From Myxococcota bacterium (GTDB taxonomy: Bacteria > Myxococcota > JACRCW01), in the NCBI GenBank assembly GCA_040752415.1, contig JBFMGU010000116.1:1-33271 (forward strand): a stretch of DNA of 33,271 nucleotides, written 5' to 3'. Shown here piece after piece: positions 837 through 25,920 of the stretch (position 1 is its first letter; each line of letters begins with the position of its first letter). Below the pieces are notes generated by a model. It was given only the letters and a program-made list of their open reading frames with translations, made no database searches and was not told the origin of the DNA. Made by a program: the position numbers and the translations under genes.

Positions 837-1961
<1,125 letters not shown>

Positions 1962-15265: not shown

Positions 15266-16564
15266 TCAGTCGCCCGACAGGTTCGGCGCGAGGATGCGCA
15301 GCGGACCGTGGTCGTCCTCGTCGCGGATGCGGAGCTGGCCGGGCTGGTAGCGGAGGAAGTGCGCCCCCTCTGTCAGATCCACGTGGAAGTGGTTGCGGTG
15401 CGCGGCGTTGTAGTTGGGCGTCAGGATGATGTGGAACACGCGCTCGTCATAGAGCTGGTTCACCAGGTCCCACATCCACTGCCCCGCCGCCGTCGTCGGA
15501 TTGGTCCCCTCCTCGAAGTCGTCGTTCACCGTCCAGCGACTACCGTCCACGAAGTTGAACGCCGCGAGATCAATGGCCGTCCCCAGCCCATGCTCGGAGA
15601 GCGAGCTCGTCCCGGAGATCACGCGACAGTTGTACACCCCCAGGTGCTCCACCTCGGTCACCTGCGACTCGACGAGAATCGCCGCGAACTTGTCCAGCGC
15701 CAACGCCAAGGCGCAGCTCATCAGCATCGGCGTGGCGGTGGAATTGCTGGTGTAGCGGAACGGGATGCCGCGGATGGGCCCCGTCACACGCACCGGATCC
15801 TCGATGTGACAGGTGAGCTCCGGGTGCCCGTCGGGATGCGTGTCCGTGTGCGTGGTGGGCTCGAAGGGAACACCCGCGGCCAGCAGCTCCTGGAGGCACG
15901 TTCCCTGCGGGTCCGGCTCGCCGGGGAGACAGGCGTAGCGCACCGTCTCCGGCTGGTTGTGCCGCGACAGCTCCTGGCACCCGTACCCCTCACGACACCC
16001 CGTGCCCGGGTACAGCCCGTAGTCACACCGGGAAACGCAGATGCCCGCGCTGGCGCTCACGCCACTCGGCGCGTCGACGCAGAACGTCACCGAGTTGGGC
16101 CCGTCGAGGTCGGGGCAATACAGGTCACACGACTGCGAGCATGTACCGCCGGGGAACCCCTCCGCCTCGGTGAGACAGCGGGAATCCGCGTAGGTGCAAT
16201 CCGCCGTGCTCTGGCACGCTCCGCCAATCCAGCCCTGGTTGGGCACGCCCGCGCCGGCGTCAATGGGCCCTTCCACCACGCCTGCGTCGTTGCCCTCCAC
16301 CACAATGCCCCCGTCGCGCCCCCCGGATGACGACGACGAGCTCACCGCCCCCGAGGACGTGCTGGTGCTGCTGCTGCCACCCCCGTTCGACGAGGAAGAC
16401 GTCCCCGACGACGTGCTGTTTCCCTCCGACGTCGACGATCCCGGTCCGCCGCTCGTCGAGGACGACTCCTCCACGCCGGGGTCGTCGTCGGTGGGGAACG
16501 GACAGGCCGTGGCCAGCAGGCTGAGGAGGACGGGGAAGGACCAATGCCGTGCGCGCATGGCCAT
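15266..16564 (-). CDS. Lipoprotein with Cys-rich region and C-terminal extensin-like (M15 peptidase-like fold) domain
   Basis: Lipobox LATAC and Ser-rich linker; GVYNCR, SEHGLGTAID and TPNYNAAHRNHFHVD motifs. Start at 16564 or 16558. Confidence 0.8.
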   Translation of the reverse strand: MAMRARHWSFPVLLSLLATACPFPTDDDPGVEESSSTSGGPGSSTSEGNSTSSGTSSSSNGGGSSSTSTSSGAVSSSSSSGGRDGGIVVEGNDAGVVEGPIDAGAGVPNQGWIGGACQSTADCTYADSRCLTEAEGFPGGTCSQSCDLYCPDLDGPNSVTFCVDAPSGVSASAGICVSRCDYGLYPGTGCREGYGCQELSRHNQPETVRYACLPGEPDPQGTCLQELLAAGVPFEPTTHTDTHPDGHPELTCHIEDPVRVTGPIRGIPFRYTSNSTATPMLMSCALALALDKFAAILVESQVTEVEHLGVYNCRVISGTSSLSEHGLGTAIDLAAFNFVDGSRWTVNDDFEEGTNPTTAAGQWMWDLVNQLYDERVFHIILTPNYNAAHRNHFHVDLTEGAHFLRYQPGQLRIRDEDDHGPLRILAPNLSGD

Positions 16565-16592
16565 CCCTTGTAGCACCGCGCGCGAGGGCGCA

Positions 16593-17627
16593 TCAGTCCA
16601 GCGGCCCGGCCTTCACCTTCTTGCGGTGTCGTCGCAGCGGGGTGGCTTGCAGGATGGCCAGGAAGTCCACGGGCTCATCCGGTCGCGCAACGCCGCGTGG
16701 CCGCTCCGCCACTTCGACCACCCGACGGTGGAACTCGCGCAGCACCGCGTCCGCGTCGGGAAGGTCACCGCGCACGTCGTGGGCCTGGGCGTTGAAGCGC
16801 TCCTGCGCCTTCGTCGTCATCCGGCCGCGACGCAGCAGGTCCTCCATGCTGTTGACCAGCCGACTGATGCTGTACCCGTCGTGGCGGACCATCTCCAGGC
16901 CCACGCGCACCAGGTCCCGCGCCGCCAGCACCCCGTCCTCGAACAACACCAGCGCCGCCTGGAAGTAGTTGTGCACCGGGACCACGCGCGGCCCGTACAC
17001 GTCGAATCCCGCCGTGGGGCTGCGACGATCCAGGTTGATGAAGATCCTCCGCACACTGTCGCGCGGCGTGGGGAGTTGCGGGAGCAGGGCCACGGTGCGT
17101 TTGACGTCGGAGGCGTAGGCGCCCGCGGCGGTCATCACCTCCGTGAGCTGGTCCCCGTCGACGCGACCGGCCACCACGTCGGCGTAGAGGCGGTAGATGA
17201 ACGCGTCGGCTTCCGCGTCGTCGCCAAAGCAGACCTCGTCGGCGTCAGGGGGAGAGGCCAGGCGCGCCTGGAGCAACGCGGGCAGCTTGTAGCCAACCTG
17301 CTCCCGCAGGGCCCGGAAGCGGCCGCGCAGGAGGTTCTGCAGGTTGGGCTTGAGCGTGAATCCGTCGACGCGCACGCCATCCAGCCGCAGCTTCTCCTCG
17401 AGAACCTTGCGCATCTGCGTGGGGGACCCGCTGATGAAGTCCACGCGCGCGGTGCGCTCATGACCACCCAGCGCACGCAACAGCGCCGCAGCGCCCGGCA
17501 CGGACTGCTTCTCCTCGGCGGTCTGGCGCACGGTGCGCCACAGGTCGCCGAGACGGTCGAACTCCGTGCGCAGGTACGTCTTGTCCAGGTCCCAGCGGTA
17601 GACCAGCGGGCGGCCCAGCTCCGTCAC
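16593..17627 (-). CDS. HAD-fold phosphatase, App1/phosphatidate phosphatase-like
   Basis: WDLDKT (DxDxT), FISGSP, FGDDAEADAFIY; GTGA start/stop overlap with plsX. Confidence 0.7.
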   Translation of the reverse strand: MTELGRPLVYRWDLDKTYLRTEFDRLGDLWRTVRQTAEEKQSVPGAAALLRALGGHERTARVDFISGSPTQMRKVLEEKLRLDGVRVDGFTLKPNLQNLLRGRFRALREQVGYKLPALLQARLASPPDADEVCFGDDAEADAFIYRLYADVVAGRVDGDQLTEVMTAAGAYASDVKRTVALLPQLPTPRDSVRRIFINLDRRSPTAGFDVYGPRVVPVHNYFQAALVLFEDGVLAARDLVRVGLEMVRHDGYSISRLVNSMEDLLRRGRMTTKAQERFNAQAHDVRGDLPDADAVLREFHRRVVEVAERPRGVARPDEPVDFLAILQATPLRRHRKKVKAGPLD

Positions 17628-18709
17628 CGGGTGCCCTCCAGTACCGGGTCCGTCGACGACGCGGCGGCATCACCCTGCTCCTGCAGCGCCCGCGCCTTGG
17701 CCAGCCCTTCCTTCATGGTCCCCACCAGGTCCGTGCGCACCGCCTTGTTCGCCACGCGCAGCGCGTTGGCAATGGCCCGGCGACCGCTGCGGCCGTGCGC
17801 CTTGATGCACAACGACTCGAACCCGAGGATGGGCGCGCCACCGTACTCCTGCCAGTCGGTGATCTGACGCAGCTGGCGGATGCCCCCGGCGAGGAACAAC
17901 AGGCCCACGCGCCACAGCATGCTCTCCCGGTACGCGTAGCGGCCCAGCTCCATCACCGTCTCACTGATGCCTTCCAGCATCTTGAGCACGACGTTTCCGG
18001 TGAATCCGTCGGTGACCACCACGTCGGCGGTGCCGCGCGGAAGGTCCACGCCCTCCACGTTGCCAATGAACTGCAGCGCGGGGTGCTCCAGCAGAATCTT
18101 GTGCGCCGCCACGATCTCCGGACGGCCCTTCTTGGGCTCGGTGCCGTTGGAGAGGAGCGCCACGCGGGGAGAGGCGTTCTTGCTGATGCGCGCGGCGTAG
18201 GCGGAGCCCATGACGGCGAACGCCACCAGGTCCTGCGGGCTGGCCTCCAACGTGGCGCCCACGTCGAGCATCAGCGAGAACGGGTCATCCTTGAGGCCAC
18301 GTCGACGCTCGGTGGGCAGCACGGCGGCCAGCGCGCAGCGACGCACGCCCTCCAGGCGCTTCCAATGACGGGAGCACGCCAGGATCACTGCGCCGGTGTT
18401 GCCCGCGCTCACCATGGCCTGCGCGCGCCCCTCCGCCACCAGCCGCGCCGCCACCGCCACGGAAGCGTTGGGGAACGTGTCCAGCGCCGTGCGCGGCTCC
18501 GCGTCCATGGCAATGACGTCGGGCGTGTGCTCCACGCGGAGCCGCTCCGGGTTGTGGCGGAGGCCGGCCAGCGTCTCGTTGATGCGTCGCTCGTCGCCCA
18601 CGAGGATGATCTGCGGCGCGTTCTTGTCCAGCGAAAGGTCCGCCGCTCCGGCCAACGTCTCCGTCGGCGCGTGGTCCCCGCCCATGGCATCCAAGGCCAG
18701 CGTCACCAT
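17624..18709 (-). CDS. plsX: Phosphate acyltransferase PlsX
   Basis: ALDAMGGDHAP, VSAGNTGA, FIGNVEG, DVVVTDGFTGNVVLK, EYGGAPILG, IKAHGRS; start at MVTLALD. Confidence 0.92.
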   Translation of the reverse strand: MVTLALDAMGGDHAPTETLAGAADLSLDKNAPQIILVGDERRINETLAGLRHNPERLRVEHTPDVIAMDAEPRTALDTFPNASVAVAARLVAEGRAQAMVSAGNTGAVILACSRHWKRLEGVRRCALAAVLPTERRRGLKDDPFSLMLDVGATLEASPQDLVAFAVMGSAYAARISKNASPRVALLSNGTEPKKGRPEIVAAHKILLEHPALQFIGNVEGVDLPRGTADVVVTDGFTGNVVLKMLEGISETVMELGRYAYRESMLWRVGLLFLAGGIRQLRQITDWQEYGGAPILGFESLCIKAHGRSGRRAIANALRVANKAVRTDLVGTMKEGLAKARALQEQGDAAASSTDPVLEGTR

Positions 18710-19002
18710 GCGTGCACCATACCGTGGTTCCGCCACACGACCGCGCAACACCTCCCGACGTCCACGCCTCCGCCAACGTCACCCCGCCGCATCCAGGGTC
18801 AGGATGCCCCACACAGCAGGGAAACGAGGCAAGGTGCAGCACTCAAAATAGGGCACTGACGCCATGCCGCACAAACGTTCGCCCGAATTGCCCAACTGCC
18901 AGGTGTGCGCCGGGAAACAGCACGGACCTGGGGAAAGTAATCGGGCGCCGGCCCCCCGACCCCCTGGCGCCTGACGTTCACGCGCGGATTCATGTTCAAT
19001 GA

Positions 19003-19057
19003 TTTCAATGGGTTACGAAATCCACCGGCAGTGGTTGGCGCTGGCACGCGGACTGCT
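19003..19057 (+). promoter_or_regulatory. sigma54 (-24/-12) promoter with upstream IHF-like site
   Basis: TGGCACGCGGACTGCT (19042-19057) against consensus TGGCACG-N4-TTGCW; TTTCAATGGGTTA (19003-19015) has one mismatch to WATCAA-N4-TTR and sits in an AT-rich patch. Confidence 0.8.
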
Positions 19058-19067
19058 ATATCCCGGC

Positions 19068-19133
19068 TCGCACGGGGCGACGCGCAGGCGGACTTCCCCC
19101 CCCGGTCCCCTGCGTGTCGCCCGTGCTTTTTTT
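19068..19133 (+). ncRNA. Candidate small RNA: single long hairpin with UCCCCCCCC loop and U7 tail
   Basis: Predicted +1 about 19068; 19070-19094 pairs with 19104-19126 (two bulges, two G-U); loop 19095-19103; T7 at 19127-19133. Confidence 0.65.
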
Positions 19134-19155
19134 GTGCCCTCGAAGCGGAGAAGAC

Positions 19156-19353
19156 ATGACGGCTCCGAGGACAACCCGACGCCCCCCACAGGCTCCCCGG
19201 CAGCACCGCCTCCGCGCATCGGAGGACGGAACGGCCACGCCCGAGGCCGAGTCGGAGCAGCGCCAGCTCACCGCGTTTGCGTTCATGCACCCCGGTCACG
19301 TGAAGGACCTGGTGGAGGAGCCGCGGCACCTGCTGGAAGAAACCGAGAGCTGA
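19156..19353 (+). CDS. Small hypothetical protein (65 aa)
   Basis: GCGGAG SD before ATG 19156; MTAPRTTRRPP...TAFAFMHPGHVKDLVEEPRHLLEETES; no recognised domain. Confidence 0.45.
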   Translation: MTAPRTTRRPPQAPRQHRLRASEDGTATPEAESEQRQLTAFAFMHPGHVKDLVEEPRHLLEETES

Positions 19354-19525
19354 AGGTCCCGGTCTGTCACACGTTCCAGCAGCCCTGCCCGTGCCCCTGC
19401 CCGGCTTGTGGAGTTCCGCCCCTCAGAGGTGTTGTCGGGCGGGAAACCATGCCAGTCGACGGGTCCCACAATCCGGGCACGGGCACGGCTCGCTTCGGTT
19501 GACGACGACAGACCCTGAGGCTTCA
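19351..19525. repeat. Long imperfect inverted repeat between convergent ORFs
   Basis: 19389-19411 versus 19466-19488 (21/23 complementary), GGTCTGTC/GACAGACC (19361-68/19507-14), inner TTCCGCCC/GGGCGGGA. Confidence 0.75.
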
Positions 19526-19933
19526 CAGCGCGTCGTTGCGGGCCAGGATGTCCAGCACGCGCTGTGGCAGCTGCACCAGCTTCTGATCACGGTCCAGGCA
19601 CACCATCTGGATGATGGCCTTCACCAGGGGCTGCGTGGCGCCACCGCGCCACACGCTCTGGTCGCACTGGATGCGGTAGTCGCTCTCCTTCTTCACCAGC
19701 GTGCGGATCTCCAGGCGGTCGCCGAACTTCGCGCCTTCCCGGTAGTGGATGTCCGCGCGGTACACCGCAAAGCCCACGCCGGTCTGCTTGTACATCTCGA
19801 GCAGCTCGTCGAGACCGAAGAAGTCCGAGCGCGCACGCTCAAAGTAGCGCAGGTAGTTGGCGTAGTAGACGACGCCGGAGAAGTCGGTGTCCTCGTAGAA
19901 GATGTTCACCGGGTAGATGTGCGGTTGCTGCAT
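19523..19933 (-). CDS. YbgC/FadM family acyl-CoA thioesterase
   Basis: YEDTDFSGVVYYANYLRYFERARSD hot-dog signature. Confidence 0.9.
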   Translation of the reverse strand: MQQPHIYPVNIFYEDTDFSGVVYYANYLRYFERARSDFFGLDELLEMYKQTGVGFAVYRADIHYREGAKFGDRLEIRTLVKKESDYRIQCDQSVWRGGATQPLVKAIIQMVCLDRDQKLVQLPQRVLDILARNDAL

Positions 19934-19960: not shown

Positions 19961-21913
19961 TCAGTTGTCGTCTTCGTCGCCGTCCGCCTCCTGGGCGGGG
20001 GATGCCACGTTGGCCCGGGGCACGTCCACCGCCGACTCCACCGCCGCCGCGCCATGGCTGCGCACGTCGGCCACGGCCACGCGGGTTCCGTCCGCCTGGA
20101 CCTCCACGGCGTAGATGGTGCCGATGTTCCGCACGCTGTGCAGCGTGTGGCCGCGTTGCTCCAGGAATTGCCGCGCGCTGTCCAGCATGTGCACGCCTTC
20201 ATAGGCCACGCGGTCCGGCAGGAGCTGGTGGTGGATGCGCGGCACGCCCACGGCGGAGCGCAGCGACATCTTGTGCTTGAAGCGGTTGATGAGGACCTGC
20301 GAGACGCTGGTGGGAATCATGGGTCCGCCCACGCCGCCCAGCACCAGCGCGGGACGTCCATCCTCGAGGACAATCGTGGGGCTCATGGACGAGAGCGGCG
20401 GCGCGCCGGGGAACGGCGTGTTCAGCGGTCCGTCGCTGAGGAAGTACGCGTTGGACTGACCGGGCGGGGCGCTGAAGTCATCCATGGTGTCATTGAGCAG
20501 GATGCCGGTGCCCTGACCCACCACCGCCGCACCAAAGCGGAAGTTGATGGTCATGGTGAGCGAGACCGCGTTGCCCATGGCGTCGACGACGCTGATGTGC
20601 GTGGTGCCGCCATCCTGCGGCTCCGCCTGGCGCAGTTCCGGCAACGGAATGCGACGCGCCGTGGAGATGCGGCTGGCGTGCGCCAGGATGCTGGGCTCCG
20701 CGGTGAAGACATCAAAAGGCACGTCCGCGCGCTCTCCGTCGCTGGCGTACTGCGTGCGGTCACTGAAGGACAGCCGCATGGCTTCCGCCAGGAGGTGCAT
20801 GTTCTGAGGGCGACCGTACGGCGTGGCGAGCGGGAGGTGCCGCGCCATGCGGTAGAGCTGGATGACCTGCAGGCCACCAATCGACGGAGGGCCGACGGTG
20901 AGGATGGTCTGGTTGCCGAACTGCGCATCCACCGCCGCGCTGACGCGCACGCGGTATTGCTGGAAGTCCACGTCGCGCATCAGGCCGCCGCGCTCGCGAC
21001 ATCCCTCGACGATGGCCTGGCTGAGCGGCCCACCGTAGAAGGCCTGCGGCCCGTCCTTGGCAAGCAGGCGCATGCTCATGGCCAGGTCGGGTTGGTAGAG
21101 GATGTCTCCCTTGCGGAGTGGCCCGGCGCCGTCACGCAGGTAGATCTTGCGGGCGTCGGGATCCTCGTTCAGCGCGGGTTCCCGCTCCCGGATGCGCGCG
21201 GCCAGCAGGCCACCCACGACGACACCGTTCTGCGCGGCGGCAATGGCGTCGTTGAACAACGTCTCCCAGGCGAGCACGCCGCCGGCCTGGTGCAACGCCC
21301 ACAATCCCGCCGGCGCACCGGGAATGGCCACGGCGGTGCATCCCCGACGGAGCTTCAGCACCGCGGCGGCGTTGTCGGGCGTGAGCAGCGGCGCGCGCTC
21401 ACGGAAATCCAGGACCTCCGCGCCCAGGCTGCCGGCGTGATGCACCACGGCAAACCCGCCGCCGCCCAGCCCCGCGTGATACGGCTCGACGACACCAATG
21501 GTCAGCGCGGCAGCCACCGCGGCGTCCATGGCGTTGCCACCCGCGGCCAGCGCGCTCAGCGCGGCACGCGTGGCGAGGGGATGTCCCGTGGCCACCGCGC
21601 CACCATGCCCCACGGCCTCCACCACCTTGGGATACGCGGGCAGGCCCTTGGCGGCGCGTGCGGTCAGATCACGACGACGACGCTGTCCCTGCGTGCGCGT
21701 CCCCGGACGGGTGAGCGCGGGATCCGGAGCCCACGCAACACCGAGCTCCTCCGCGGTGGGCGCGGCGGCGCGCGTGGCAGGCGGCTTCTGCGTTTCCACC
21801 ACGACGGCGTTGGCGTGCGCGGAGTCCTCGCGCATCAGCAATGCCAGGGCGAGCAGACCCGCCAGGGCGGCGGCAGCGGTCAGCGGCTTCCGACGTTGCA
21901 CAAGGGTGTTCAT
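19961..21913 (-). CDS. ggt: Gamma-glutamyltransferase
   Basis: GGNAMDAAVAA, GLGGGGF, DFRERAP, autoprocessing site GG|TTHISVVD, LLNDTMDDF, LSSMSPT, PRIHHQ; N-terminal signal/TM; start uncertain (21913 or 21946). Confidence 0.92.
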   Translation of the reverse strand: MNTLVQRRKPLTAAAALAGLLALALLMREDSAHANAVVVETQKPPATRAAAPTAEELGVAWAPDPALTRPGTRTQGQRRRRDLTARAAKGLPAYPKVVEAVGHGGAVATGHPLATRAALSALAAGGNAMDAAVAAALTIGVVEPYHAGLGGGGFAVVHHAGSLGAEVLDFRERAPLLTPDNAAAVLKLRRGCTAVAIPGAPAGLWALHQAGGVLAWETLFNDAIAAAQNGVVVGGLLAARIREREPALNEDPDARKIYLRDGAGPLRKGDILYQPDLAMSMRLLAKDGPQAFYGGPLSQAIVEGCRERGGLMRDVDFQQYRVRVSAAVDAQFGNQTILTVGPPSIGGLQVIQLYRMARHLPLATPYGRPQNMHLLAEAMRLSFSDRTQYASDGERADVPFDVFTAEPSILAHASRISTARRIPLPELRQAEPQDGGTTHISVVDAMGNAVSLTMTINFRFGAAVVGQGTGILLNDTMDDFSAPPGQSNAYFLSDGPLNTPFPGAPPLSSMSPTIVLEDGRPALVLGGVGGPMIPTSVSQVLINRFKHKMSLRSAVGVPRIHHQLLPDRVAYEGVHMLDSARQFLEQRGHTLHSVRNIGTIYAVEVQADGTRVAVADVRSHGAAAVESAVDVPRANVASPAQEADGDEDDN

Positions 21914-22032
21914 CAGCCGACACGAGGGTGGGAGAACCGGGTGCACATTGTAGCCGGTCCGGCCCCGCGTCCACTTCTCTCTTTTTCATCGCGGCTCGTG
22001 TGGCCATCACGCCCACATGCGCCGGCGCCGAG

Positions 22033-23745: not shown

Positions 23746-24297
23746 TCAGCGCTTCAACGCATCCCGCGCCCTGCTGGCCAGCGCGTCCTTGGCCGCCTGG
23801 TCCAGGTCCGGGTCCTGCTGGATTCCCGAGACAATGGATCCCACGTCGACGGCAACCAGCGCGTACAGGTTGTCATCCTTGGCCAGCCAGAGGTCCATGA
23901 CGCGGGCGCCGTTCACCGCAAACGCACTGAGGCGCGCGGCCAGATCGGGCTTGGGCGGGCCGCCGGAGAGGTTGCCGCAGTTGGTCGCGCACTTGTTGAT
24001 GGCGTCGACGAGGACGTTCTTCACCTTCTCCGCCAGTTGCGACTTGGCCTGATCCACGGCATGCCGCGCCACCTCACCGGGGGCCTGGGGACGCGTGGCC
24101 TTGGCCAACGTCACCACGGCGCAGAGTCCTTCCACGTTCTTGCTGCGCATCTCCGCCTGGCAGTCGCCACCAATCCAGGAGGGATCTTTGATGAGCACCG
24201 GCGCGTCCTTGCCCCCGCGCTTGGCCAGGGCTGCGCATCCACCACCAGCCACCAGGAGGGCCATCACCAGGCCCGCCGCTCCACGACGACAATCCAT
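23746..24297 (-). CDS. Hypothetical lipoprotein (LPP20-like)
   Basis: AAAAGGAG SD; MDCRRGAAGLVMALLVAGGGC lipoprotein signal; PSWI..., A..QLAEKV, VNGARV.D.W...DNLYALV pattern. This is the 3' part of the 614-aa track ORF. Confidence 0.65.
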   Translation of the reverse strand: MDCRRGAAGLVMALLVAGGGCAALAKRGGKDAPVLIKDPSWIGGDCQAEMRSKNVEGLCAVVTLAKATRPQAPGEVARHAVDQAKSQLAEKVKNVLVDAINKCATNCGNLSGGPPKPDLAARLSAFAVNGARVMDLWLAKDDNLYALVAVDVGSIVSGIQQDPDLDQAAKDALASRARDALKR

Positions 24298-24477
24298 GTC
24301 TCCAACTCCTTTTCCCGCAAGCGCCGCGTTGGACGGCGAACGGGTGCGCCGAATTCGCGCCATCCGAGGATTCCCCCCGCACGCGCGCACGTTCCCTCGT
24401 CGTGGAGCGGCGTTCAAGCGTGCTGCGTTGGCTGCGCATTTGGAGTGCGCCATCCCCAGCCGGTAGCGTCCCATTTC

Positions 24478-25920
24478 ATGTGGCAGCGGGTGGGTCGGGT
24501 TGCGGGCGTCCTGGTGTTCCTGGGGGTGGCGTTCATCCCGTCGGGATTGCACCAGTTGGAAGGATTTGGTCGTCGGCCCGCGTACGCGGCGGCGGTGGCG
24601 GCGTGGATGGCCGTGTGGTGGCTGACGGAAGCGGTGCCCATTGCTCTCACCGCGTGTCTCCCGCTCGTCGCGTTTCCGTTGCTCGGGGTGTTCGGCAAGG
24701 GCTTTGGTGGCGACGTGATGGCGGCCGCGGAGCCGTTCGTGGACCCGTACATCTTCCTGTTCATGGGCGGCATGGCGCTGGGCGCAGCCATGGAGCAGAC
24801 CAACCTGCACCGTCGGGTGGCGTTGCACATCATGCGCGTGATTGGCACCCGGCCCAAGCAGCTCCTCCTGGGAATCCTCGTCGCCACCGCGGCCATCTCC
24901 ATGTGGATCTCCAACACCGCCACCGCGGTCATGATGATGCCCATTGGCATGGCGCTCCTGGCCCAGCTTGCCGTGACGACGGGACGAGCGCGTCTGGACT
25001 GGTTTGGCTGCTCGGTGATGCTTGCCGTGGCGTACGGCGCCAACGTCGGCGGCATTGGCACCAAGATCGGCACGGGGACCAACTCCATCTTCTGTGGCTT
25101 CGTCGCCGACGTGCTCAAGCGCGACATCGGCTTCCTCGAGTACGTGGCCATTGGCACGCCGTTCGTGGTGCTGTTCATCCCGCTTGCCTGGGCGGCGTTG
25201 TGGCGCGTGGGTCGCAAGGACCAGCTCCCCGACGTGCAGGCGGGCGAGATCATTGACGCCGAGCTGCGCAAGATGGGCGCCATGACGTCGGGAGAGCGCA
25301 CCGTGGCGACGATCTTCCTGCTCGCCGCCTTCCTCTGGATCTTCGCCGACCCCATCCGGGGCGTCGTCACACCGCTGCTCAAGTCCATGTGGCCCACGCT
25401 GAAATTCCAGGGCAAGCACTACGAGGCGGTGGTGGCCATGGGCGCGGGCCTGCTCTGCCTGGCGACGAGAACGCTCGACACGCAGGGACTCAAGCGCGTC
25501 CCGTGGAGCACGTTGCTCCTGCTGGGCGGCAGCTTTGCCATGGCGGCGGGCATGGAGGGCAGCGGGCTCTCCAGCTGGATGGCCGCGCATCTCAAGTCCA
25601 TCGTCGACATGCCCCTGATTGCGCAGCTTGCGCTCGCCAGCTTCTCCAGCGTGTTCCTGTCCGCGGTGGCGTCGAACACGGCGACGATCAACGTCCTCAT
25701 CAACGTCATGCCGCGAAACCTGCTGTTGCTGGCCGCGGCCACCATCGGCTCGTCGTGCGACTTTGCGTTGCCGGCCGGCACACCGCCCAACGCCATTGTG
25801 TTTGGGAGCGGCTACGTGCGTCTCCCCGTGATGATGCGCGCGGGTTTCGTGTTGGACCTGGTGGCCGCCGCCGTCATCACGCTCTACGCCTACCTGTACC
25901 TGCCGCTGCTCCTGGGCTGA
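24478..25920 (+). CDS. SLC13/DASS family sodium-coupled anion symporter
   Basis: WWLTEAVP, FLFMGG..LG.AME..NLHRR.AL, SMWISNTATA.MM.PI, ASNTAT, FALPAGTPPNAIVFGSG. Confidence 0.93.
   Translation: MWQRVGRVAGVLVFLGVAFIPSGLHQLEGFGRRPAYAAAVAAWMAVWWLTEAVPIALTACLPLVAFPLLGVFGKGFGGDVMAAAEPFVDPYIFLFMGGMALGAAMEQTNLHRRVALHIMRVIGTRPKQLLLGILVATAAISMWISNTATAVMMMPIGMALLAQLAVTTGRARLDWFGCSVMLAVAYGANVGGIGTKIGTGTNSIFCGFVADVLKRDIGFLEYVAIGTPFVVLFIPLAWAALWRVGRKDQLPDVQAGEIIDAELRKMGAMTSGERTVATIFLLAAFLWIFADPIRGVVTPLLKSMWPTLKFQGKHYEAVVAMGAGLLCLATRTLDTQGLKRVPWSTLLLLGGSFAMAAGMEGSGLSSWMAAHLKSIVDMPLIAQLALASFSSVFLSAVASNTATINVLINVMPRNLLLLAAATIGSSCDFALPAGTPPNAIVFGSGYVRLPVMMRAGFVLDLVAAAVITLYAYLYLPLLLG

Follow-up and report, generated by a model that had tools for sequence, protein, structure and literature searches.

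Contig JBFMGU010000116.1 of a Myxococcota bacterium (assembly GCA_040752415.1) is a stretch of 33,271 nucleotides (nt), here called the window. Near its middle, on the forward strand, lies a short unit that consists of a sigma54-type promoter, one long hairpin with a loop of eight cytosines, and a run of seven T. This unit is very likely a real, conserved regulatory RNA gene of about 65 nt, one of five copies in the genome and uncatalogued, with no match in Rfam. The reading preferred here, at a probability of roughly 0.7, is that 19042-19133 is a stand-alone sigma54-dependent gene for a trans-acting small RNA (sRNA), whose poly-C loop would pair with G-runs at ribosome-binding sites (RBSs). 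The computed evidence covers sequence and fold, the number of copies, their conservation and covariation, strand specificity, linkage to the promoter, and the presence of rpoN and activators.

Folding gives a single hairpin in which 19070-19094 pair with 19104-19126. The stem is capped by a loop of nine nt, UCCCCCCCC (19095-19103), with the eight cytosines (C8) at 19096-19103 and a U.G closing pair. The minimum free energy is -45.1 to -47 kcal/mol, compared with -25 to -29 kcal/mol for 200 dinucleotide shuffles. None of the 200 folds as well (z -6.5 to -6.8), which puts the fold well outside what chance would give. An earlier note on this DNA had described a stem of about 23 bp, a C8 loop and seven T, on which folding and direct reading agree. 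It had also seen no open reading frame (ORF) within the unit of about 65 nt, and by codon-position composition no long coding-like ORF runs across it. Every structural point of the note was borne out, and the comparative results below favour its functional reading. An Rfam scan that included the model for Pxr, an sRNA of Myxococcus xanthus, was among the checks proposed in that note. No family reached the gathering score anywhere in the window, and at E <= 10 only miRNA-type and ncS035 noise appeared.

The second part of the unit is its promoter. The sequence TGGCACGCGGACTGCT agrees with TGGCAC-N5-TTGCW at 10 of the 11 specified positions, which bears out the near-consensus sigma54 promoter that had been read at 19042-57. 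By consensus match the site is thus assigned to the sigma54 type. If the C of the promoter GC (19056) is taken as -12, the predicted +1 falls at about 19068, again as first proposed, and lies two bases 5' of the hairpin stem. Promoter-like sites of such quality (at least 10/11) are scarce, with only 218 in the 22.0 million positions of the whole genome. A stricter promoter expression has 71 matches in the genome. A run of seven or more C follows within 90 nt in seven of these 71, and five of the seven are members of the family described below.

Several searches recovered the same family within this genome. A blastn search with the region found three further copies, about 400 bp apart on contig C497. 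A regular expression for the promoter and C-run found these three and a diverged copy on contig C148. A covariance model built from the five copies of this genome, R1, was then scanned against the whole genome and matched exactly five loci, at 73.6-95.5 bits. Common to all five are TGGCAC-N5-CTGCTAT, a 12-nt spacer, a stem base GCACGG...CCGUGC, an apical stem GGAC/GUCC and a loop U(U/C)C8. The promoter motif is invariant, and its end always lies 12 nt 5' of the stem base GCACGG. All five copies fold to the same hairpin, and in a plain MAFFT alignment of them 5 of the 22 pairs, in the middle of the stem, show compensatory change.

The copies differ in layout. Each copy on C497 has its own promoter and its own T-run, with T-rich tails 3' of the hairpin. 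In the C148 copy the first hairpin has a weak U-tract and is followed by a second hairpin with the loop AUCCCCCCCC and U7, giving a two-hairpin RNA of about 150 nt. In other two-hairpin forms, too, the T-rich tail stands 3' of the last hairpin.

The family extends through the class to which the genome belongs. In the collection used, this class comprises the present genome and only three other species genomes. R1 has matches in all three, at 26.5-45.2 bits. Sigma54-type sites lie 8-16 nt 5' of the hairpin in these relatives: TGGCATACTCAATGCA, TGGCATGGATACTGCT, TGGCACGGTACTCGCT and TGGCATGGTGCGTGTA. The last has a weaker -12 element; in G001 the -12 reads TGT, not TGC. Throughout the class every first hairpin has a C8 or C9 loop, and second hairpins have C6-C8; the GGAC/GUCC closing stem is conserved in first hairpins. 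Most of the relatives' loci carry a second C-loop hairpin plus terminator.

A second covariance model, R2, was built from 13 class hairpins. Across these 13, aligned by the model, all 22 modelled pairs vary on both sides. Paired cells make up 93.3%, compared with 34-45% after a shift of the 3' partner by 1-3 columns, and none of 500 shuffles reaches any of the covariation measures. The proposed check by covariation in relatives therefore came out in favour of the stem (22/22) and of the loop, which stays C8 or C9 in the class. Among the paired cells, 33 are G.U and 3 are A.C. Such an excess of G.U over A.C means that only the promoter strand has its pairing maintained, which would be expected if the element acts as RNA but not if it were a DNA palindrome.

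This strand bias bears on the idea that the unit acts as DNA, either as a palindrome of the kind found in repetitive extragenic palindromes or miniature inverted-repeat transposable elements, or as a plain terminator that lies near a sigma54-like sequence by chance. The unit is indeed palindromic and multi-copy, and another large inverted repeat lies 260 nt downstream. This explanation is nevertheless hardly credible. There are only five loci, each with the promoter at a fixed distance of 12 nt. The window unit scores 83.2 bits with R1 and 80 bits with R2 on the forward strand, and 11.8 bits on the reverse strand, and G.U pairs outnumber A.C by 33 to 3. The stems diverge by compensatory change while the loop stays fixed. 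The preceding gene is divergent, so that there is nothing to terminate. Finally, the position of the two-hairpin form behind a ferredoxin gene is the same in four genomes. The unit of promoter, hairpin and U-tract appears instead to be a conserved, multi-copy, strand-specific RNA gene, and therefore neither a chance hairpin nor a leader.

The ferredoxin gene also orders the family. The two-hairpin form is found 3' of this 4Fe-4S ferredoxin gene in all four genomes of the class, which identifies it as the ancestral orthologue; its single-hairpin paralogues are the window copy and the C497 array. In the related genome G002, a single-hairpin copy adjoins an Extensin-like_C gene, and the window copy has a gene of the same family at a distance of 2.5 kb, a hint that the single-hairpin paralogue, too, is old. 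Two G002 loci of the family (L017 and L019) have an Extensin-like_C gene and a CitMHS-type transporter gene as neighbours. Members of the two gene families also occur a few kb from the window copy, at 15266-16576 (-) and 24037-25920 (+), and the single-hairpin paralogue thus seems to be partly syntenic within the class.

Sequence similarity as such does not reveal these relatives. When 60 relatives were searched with the region by plain blastn, no copy turned up beyond this genome, and the covariance model alone reached the class relatives. Scans with the exact 19-nt stem-loop motif gave ten loci in genome contigs, only two of which (L049 and L053) are true members by R2, at 52-57 bits over the full model. 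The other eight share only a motif core of 19-32 nt at 19.8-26 bits; they look like chance matches, and several apparently lie inside coding sequence. In metagenome contigs the same scan gave four loci, one of them true (L071). Because so few true members turned up in these scans, the class is taken to be rare in public data.

The window is contig C20 of a genome of 11.0 Mb in 520 contigs, and its G+C content is 68.6%. The flanking genes, called by codon-position composition and Pfam, are listed in Table 1 with the parts of the unit. The unit stands alone within a gap of 770 bp, and the sole co-oriented frame after it is an ORF of 65 codons. At all three loci of this genome (window, C148 and C497) the first coding-like gene that follows downstream is encoded on the other strand.

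Table 1. Coordinates in the window of the predicted sRNA gene, its candidate upstream elements and the neighbouring reading frames.
Feature	Position	Strand	Basis or remark
plsX-type gene	17624-18751	-	divergent from unit
Candidate activator (enhancer) G+C box AATCGGGCGCC	18939..18949	+	about 100 nt 5' of promoter, repeated between copies
A+T-rich patch with IHF-like site (19003-19015) and 10-mer ATGATTTCAA (18999-19008)	18990..19025	+	direct reading
Sigma54-type -24/-12 promoter TGGCACGCGGACTGCT	19042..19057	+	direct reading and motif scan
Predicted primary transcript (sRNA), about 65 nt	19068..19133	+	+1 from promoter geometry; 3' end from hairpin and T7
Long hairpin, about 23 pairs, 57 nt	19070..19126	+	folding, compensatory changes
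Apical loop UCCCCCCCC, proposed seed	19095..19103	+	C8/C9 conservation
T7 tract, intrinsic terminator tail	19127..19133	+	direct reading
65-codon orphan ORF	19156..19353	+	GGAG 6 nt before ATG; 23 nt after T-run
Thioesterase gene	19523-19933	-	convergent with unit
Gamma-glutamyltranspeptidase gene	19961-21946	-	convergent with unit

This small ORF is the basis of the alternative that the earlier note had kept beside its sRNA proposal, an attenuating leader. In this model, the sigma54 promoter drives the 65-codon ORF, and the hairpin with T7 tunes read-through into it. The ORF lies on the same strand close behind the T-run, its ATG is preceded by GGAG, and its composition is moderately coding-like: G+C at the three codon positions is 0.72/0.53/0.78 over 19114-19353. 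Its third-position value of 0.78 is, however, below the 0.82-0.92 of the neighbouring genes. The ORF belongs to no Pfam family, and no homologue turned up in the three class relatives, where the best match (E 0.0024) lies inside a frame of 683 amino acids. No such ORF follows the other four family loci of this genome or the relatives' loci that were examined. Those other loci end in a further promoter-hairpin unit, in a second C-loop hairpin with terminator, or at a convergent gene. In addition, a hairpin of 23 pairs followed by T7 is a strong terminator. With the ORF an orphan that has no counterpart at the other copies, the leader has become very improbable, and the ORF is probably not part of the sRNA system. 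Between it and the 3' end of the thioesterase gene lies a large imperfect inverted repeat (19389-19490, GCCCTGCCCGTGCCC...GGGCACGGGCACGGC), which is probably the terminator hairpin of the convergent gene.

As a stand-alone sRNA gene, the unit would work as follows. Sigma54-RNA polymerase would transcribe it, so that the gene would stay silent as long as no ATP-dependent enhancer-binding activator has been switched on. The gene for this activator probably lies at some other place in the genome, and the protein would probably bind about 100-150 nt upstream, and an A+T-rich patch may help the DNA to bend. Once active, the activator would remodel the sigma54-polymerase at 19042-57. The product would be an RNA of 65 nt that ends at the U-tract and is nearly all one long hairpin. 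Its loop of eight C, the only long single-stranded stretch, would be its functional part. The most likely partners of the loop are G-runs at or next to the RBSs of a small set of mRNAs, and the pairing would block translation or alter stability without Hfq or ProQ. The five loci, one ancestral two-hairpin form and four single-hairpin paralogues (three of them in tandem), could provide dosage or separate inputs. Transcription, the activator, the seed function and the targets are the inferred parts of this scheme.

The genome has the general machinery for it. There is one rpoN, and 52 matches to Sigma54_activat were found, about 47 of them strong. Neither Hfq nor ProQ has a match in the genome, which is 96.8% complete.

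Candidate activator sites lie upstream of several copies. The G+C box, a 10-11-mer with the sequence AATCGGGCGCC, is found at -104 in the window and at -108 in the tandem copy C497a. Related boxes, CGGGCGCC and AAACCCGGGC, are at -102 to -108 in C497b and C148, so that AATCGGGCGC(C) or a related box stands about 100-108 nt 5' of the promoters in the family copies. Because AATCGGGCGC occurs 14 times in the genome, the box alone would be weak evidence for an activator site. The second element is the A+T-rich 10-mer. Its reverse complement, TTGAAATCAT, occurs only eight times in the 11-Mb genome, and three of the eight are upstream of family promoters (window, C497b and C497c); C497a has the variant TTGAAATTAT. 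The placement differs, being -43 and inverted in the window and about -145 on C497. Inside the same patch, the IHF-like sequence TTTCAATGGGTTA that had been pointed out at 19003-15 fits 8 of the 9 specified positions of WATCAANNNNTTR, which is taken here to be the IHF consensus. It is a candidate only and may serve as an IHF site. Since positions and orientations are not uniform, the G+C boxes and the A+T-rich 10-mer can be graded only as candidate activator or bending sites.

Possible partners for the loop were sought among G-runs. A rough scan of the genome counts 503 runs of G7 or longer per orientation. Runs of G7-G9 placed 3-10 nt before the ATG of a coding-like ORF occur at nine genes, compared with two for a control with C-runs. 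By Pfam the nine encode a stand-alone receiver, a FIST sensor, a PAS hybrid kinase, FHA, MshEN-domain, BON, NHL and DUF7079 proteins, and one protein without a Pfam family. The predicted duplexes between loop and leader have energies of -17.8 to -23.2 kcal/mol and rank in about the top 1% of 7193 rough start regions. Such modelling suggests that G-run sites suitable for pairing exist in the genome, and is not proof of targets.

Another model is that the RNA is made and acts by binding a protein, as a sponge or decoy for a regulator that binds C-rich RNA, or as a substrate of a chaperone or RNase. The invariant poly-C loop together with the GGAC/GUCC closing stem is more conservation than a seed alone needs, and a protein might bind at the long stem base GCACGG/CCGUGC, whose conservation is perfect. 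A multi-copy tandem layout would suit a titrating RNA. As neither Hfq nor ProQ was found, any helper would be of another kind. The direct targets of Pxr, moreover, are described as still unconfirmed in 2025 in the available part of PMC11928866. No candidate protein has been identified, however. Other sRNAs with C-rich loops, 6C and sX13, are described in the sections at hand of PMC6486639 and PMC3771888 as pairing with G-rich mRNA sites, and the present genome holds G-run RBSs that pair at -18 to -23 kcal/mol. Protein binding is therefore considered unlikely, and pairing of the loop with mRNA is retained as the preferred function.

The closest known parallel is Pxr. The note had spoken of Pxr-like logic and had left open whether the RNA is a distant Pxr relative or a new family. 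By sequence model it is not a Pxr. The Rfam model (RF01812) itself works: pxr was located in three genomes of the same phylum via a primer printed in PMC5568312, and on these three, all of family f11, the model scores 122.8-134.8 bits. It gives no match at E <= 10 in 18800-19500 of the window, none at gathering score in the whole window, and none in this genome; in one of the three class relatives it gives noise of 16.9-20.8 bits. At the level of at least 80 bits used for membership, the window RNA fails to qualify. In the other direction, R2 scores 8.8 bits (E 0.57) on the first stem-loop (SL1) of Pxr, and its best matches on pxr loci, 13-16 bits, fall on the third stem-loop (SL3) or terminator.

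The architecture also differs. Pxr is 108-109 nt long with three stem-loops and a conserved 8-bp segment in SL3; it lies 3' of pxrR/nla19 and is processed to a short form. The window RNA is about 65 nt long with one much longer stem and T7. It has no SL2 or SL3 and no adjacent activator, and its neighbours are the plsX-like and thioesterase genes.

What the two RNAs share is a design. The sigma54-type promoter is nearly identical: CTGGCACGAGGACTGCTATA before pxr in genome G035, among the closest matches seen, compared with CTGGCACGCGGACTGCTATA in the window. A further sigma54-type promoter, by its sequence, is TGGCACGAGGACTGCT before pxr in locus L057, compared with TGGCACGCGGACTGCT. In both RNAs the first hairpin carries a U-flanked poly-C loop, which in the Rfam consensus of Pxr SL1 is UUCCCCCCCA (C7) and in the window UCCCCCCCC; that the loop is essential is known for Pxr only. 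According to the available text of PMC5684412, Pxr no longer functions, although its level is not lowered, once the fifth base of the SL1 loop is changed from C to A or this loop is deleted; M. xanthus is without hfq. Like Pxr, the window RNA comes from the phylum Myxococcota, has tandem paralogues and is found in a genome where no Hfq was detected. In Cystobacter, tandem pxr paralogues each have a sigma54 promoter of their own, as described in part of PMC5568312. The note's Pxr-like logic is apt, the SL1 loop, sigma54 promoters and tandem paralogues of Pxr being described in the same excerpts (PMC5684412, PMC5568312). The window RNA has the design of the working module of Pxr: sigma54 promoter, poly-C hairpin, tandem amplification and no Hfq detected.

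Evidence for shared descent comes from one further genome, G129. Here a single-hairpin RNA with a C8 loop, and with TGGCACcgcgcTTGCT 12 nt upstream, lies directly 3' of a response-regulator activator gene on the same strand. Over about 365 residues this activator is 61-62% identical to the one encoded 5' of pxr in G035. Within G129 it is clearly the best match of that protein (443 bits; the next has 320), and it also scores above any G035 paralogue (307 bits). From the orthology of the activator and the adjacency, it follows that the G129 RNA is the positional counterpart of pxr. The Pxr model misses this RNA even at E <= 10, and the RNA resembles that of the window, not the three-stem Pxr. 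The evidence thus agrees with the pair of options in the note, a distant Pxr relative or a new family: the Pxr covariance model fails on the window RNA, and the positional counterpart in G129 links it to Pxr. This locus is the best single evidence that Pxr and the poly-C-loop family share descent. Common descent of the two is graded no higher than likely, because the evidence from G129 is one locus.

A separate observation concerns a gene just 5' of the tandem array on C497 (2347-3564 of locus L011), which encodes a GNAT-type acetyltransferase (Acetyltransf_6 / FemAB_like). In M. xanthus the GNAT acetyltransferase gene pxrA adjoins pxr and is, in the part of PMC11928866 at hand, a proposed Pxr target. 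The likeness may be a coincidence.

How far the two RNAs reach was estimated with R2 and the Rfam Pxr model in the same sample of 150 genomes of the phylum. R2 at E <= 0.01 matches 19 of 151 genomes, counting the present genome and its three class relatives. The remaining 15 fall in eight further families (for example 9 of 18 genomes in family f4, and 0 of 21 in f11). The Pxr model matches 20 of the 21 genomes of f11, 14 of them over its cut-off, and none of the 129 others, so that the two models match disjoint families in this sample. Of 18 R2 matches outside the training set, 14 have a sigma54-type site upstream on the same strand, at a distance of up to 260 nt; such a site was defined as at least 9/11 with GG and GC invariant. 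Background in the same loci is 12 sites per about 98,000 positions, which predicts about 0.6 sites compared with the 14 observed. G129 (two loci) and G099 have single long hairpins with C8-C9 loops and U-tracts that start 12 nt after the promoter, and family f4 has multi-hairpin RNAs with two loops of the GGUUUCCCCCCCGCC type. Searches of the literature on sigma54-dependent sRNAs in Deltaproteobacteria and Myxococcota, and on pxr with Anaeromyxobacter, found no account of this sRNA family.

Two of these distant loci have neighbours of some interest. In an f4 genome (locus L029, contig G045:C1), a gene for a response-regulator sigma54 activator (2-1138, -) is 48% identical to the Pxr-adjacent activator. 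It is divergent from a three-hairpin RNA (about 1330-1578, +) with two poly-C loops, and the two are a candidate cognate pair. In G042 (locus L026, contig C14), a C8-loop hairpin RNA at 1352-1446 (-), 46.9 bits, has TGGCACCGGACTTGCT 95 nt upstream. A gene for tRNA-Sec lies at 1501-1572 on the same strand, and the RNA is about 55 nt upstream of it. Rfam models run on 20 related loci gave nothing at gathering score except one tRNA-Sec.

In the portion of PMC5684412 at hand, the origin of pxr is assumed to lie at the base of the suborder Cystobacterineae. A broader proposal, put forward tentatively and at somewhat less than even odds, is that Pxr represents, in the Myxococcaceae, an old superfamily of sigma54-driven sRNAs that spans the phylum and whose core is a single poly-C-loop hairpin. 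The window RNA would then be the minimal core, amplified to five loci in a deep-branching uncultured class, with a regulon of mRNAs with G-run RBSs, many of them for signal transduction, and without Hfq or ProQ.

Several points weigh against the preferred reading and its extension to the phylum. The sigma54 promoter is assigned by its match to a consensus only, and the upstream boxes common to the copies are short and vary in place and orientation. No activator gene lies beside any of the three loci (window, C148, C497). This genome also has no standout orthologue of the Pxr regulator, the best candidates being 49-51% identical, an ordinary level for paralogues. The organism is represented by its assembly only; a search of sequencing runs for the stretch returned no RNA run and one DNA run, with a 0.04 share of words. 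The alignment of 13 hairpins is fitted to the model and its sequences are related, five being paralogues of one genome, so that its figures lean towards structure. An ORF preceded by GGAG does come after the terminator in the window. The proposal for targets depends on a crude gene model and a small excess (nine compared with two), about 1% of start regions would pair as well, and the nine genes have no single common function. Outside the class, R2 scores are only 27-47 bits, and 4 of the 18 matches have no promoter-like site and may be false. Some of these matches may reflect convergence on a simple motif.

Other bacterial sRNAs offer partial parallels. The Qrr1-5 RNAs of Vibrio are multi-copy sRNAs with sigma54 promoters; they are activated by a response regulator, depend on Hfq and have a single-stranded seed. 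In Desulfovibrio vulgaris, a sigma54-dependent sRNA is controlled by DVU0679, as described in the available part of PMC3333781. These RNAs have in common with the present family a sigma54 promoter of their own, a response-regulator activator and an intrinsic terminator. They have no likeness to the window RNA in sequence or structure, and the Qrr seed is not a poly-C loop.

A further group is formed by sRNAs with C-rich loops, namely 6C of Actinobacteria, sX13 of Xanthomonas and RsaE/RoxS of Firmicutes. In the accessible text on them (PMC6486639, PMC3771888, PMC10433868) the C-runs of the loops act as seeds for G-rich mRNA sites, in some cases without a chaperone. As in the window RNA, an unpaired C-run is conserved in a hairpin loop. 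These sRNAs differ in that they belong to other phyla, have sigma70-type promoters and carry shorter C motifs (4-6 C) in several loops. None of the Rfam models, those for C-rich-loop sRNAs included, matched in the window.

Pxr is the best-studied regulatory RNA of social bacteria, and its direct targets and mode of action were still open in 2025 according to the part of PMC11928866 at hand. With nothing retained but the sigma54 promoter, a single hairpin and the poly-C loop, the present family lays bare the essential part, and it supplies many natural variants for covariation and target prediction. It suggests that the origin of the Pxr-type design lies much deeper in the Myxococcota and that Pxr is one member of an RNA family far wider and older than had been supposed. 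It is also a clean case of multi-copy, enhancer-dependent sRNAs outside the Qrr paradigm of Vibrio, in a genome where no gene for Hfq or ProQ was found. Rfam 15 lacks the family, which could enter it as a family of its own or as a clan with Pxr.

The genome also contains a second repeat unit, unrelated to the first. It is found on contigs C259 (10300-10473, +) and C366 (1-150, -) and has a sigma54-type promoter (TGGCACGCGCGCTGCT / TGGCATGCGGCCTGCT). The C259 locus has no Rfam match. Direct repeats of TTCAGACA stand upstream, and the conserved transcript contains C7 and G6 runs that can pair. Both copies are at contig ends, and more copies may exist.

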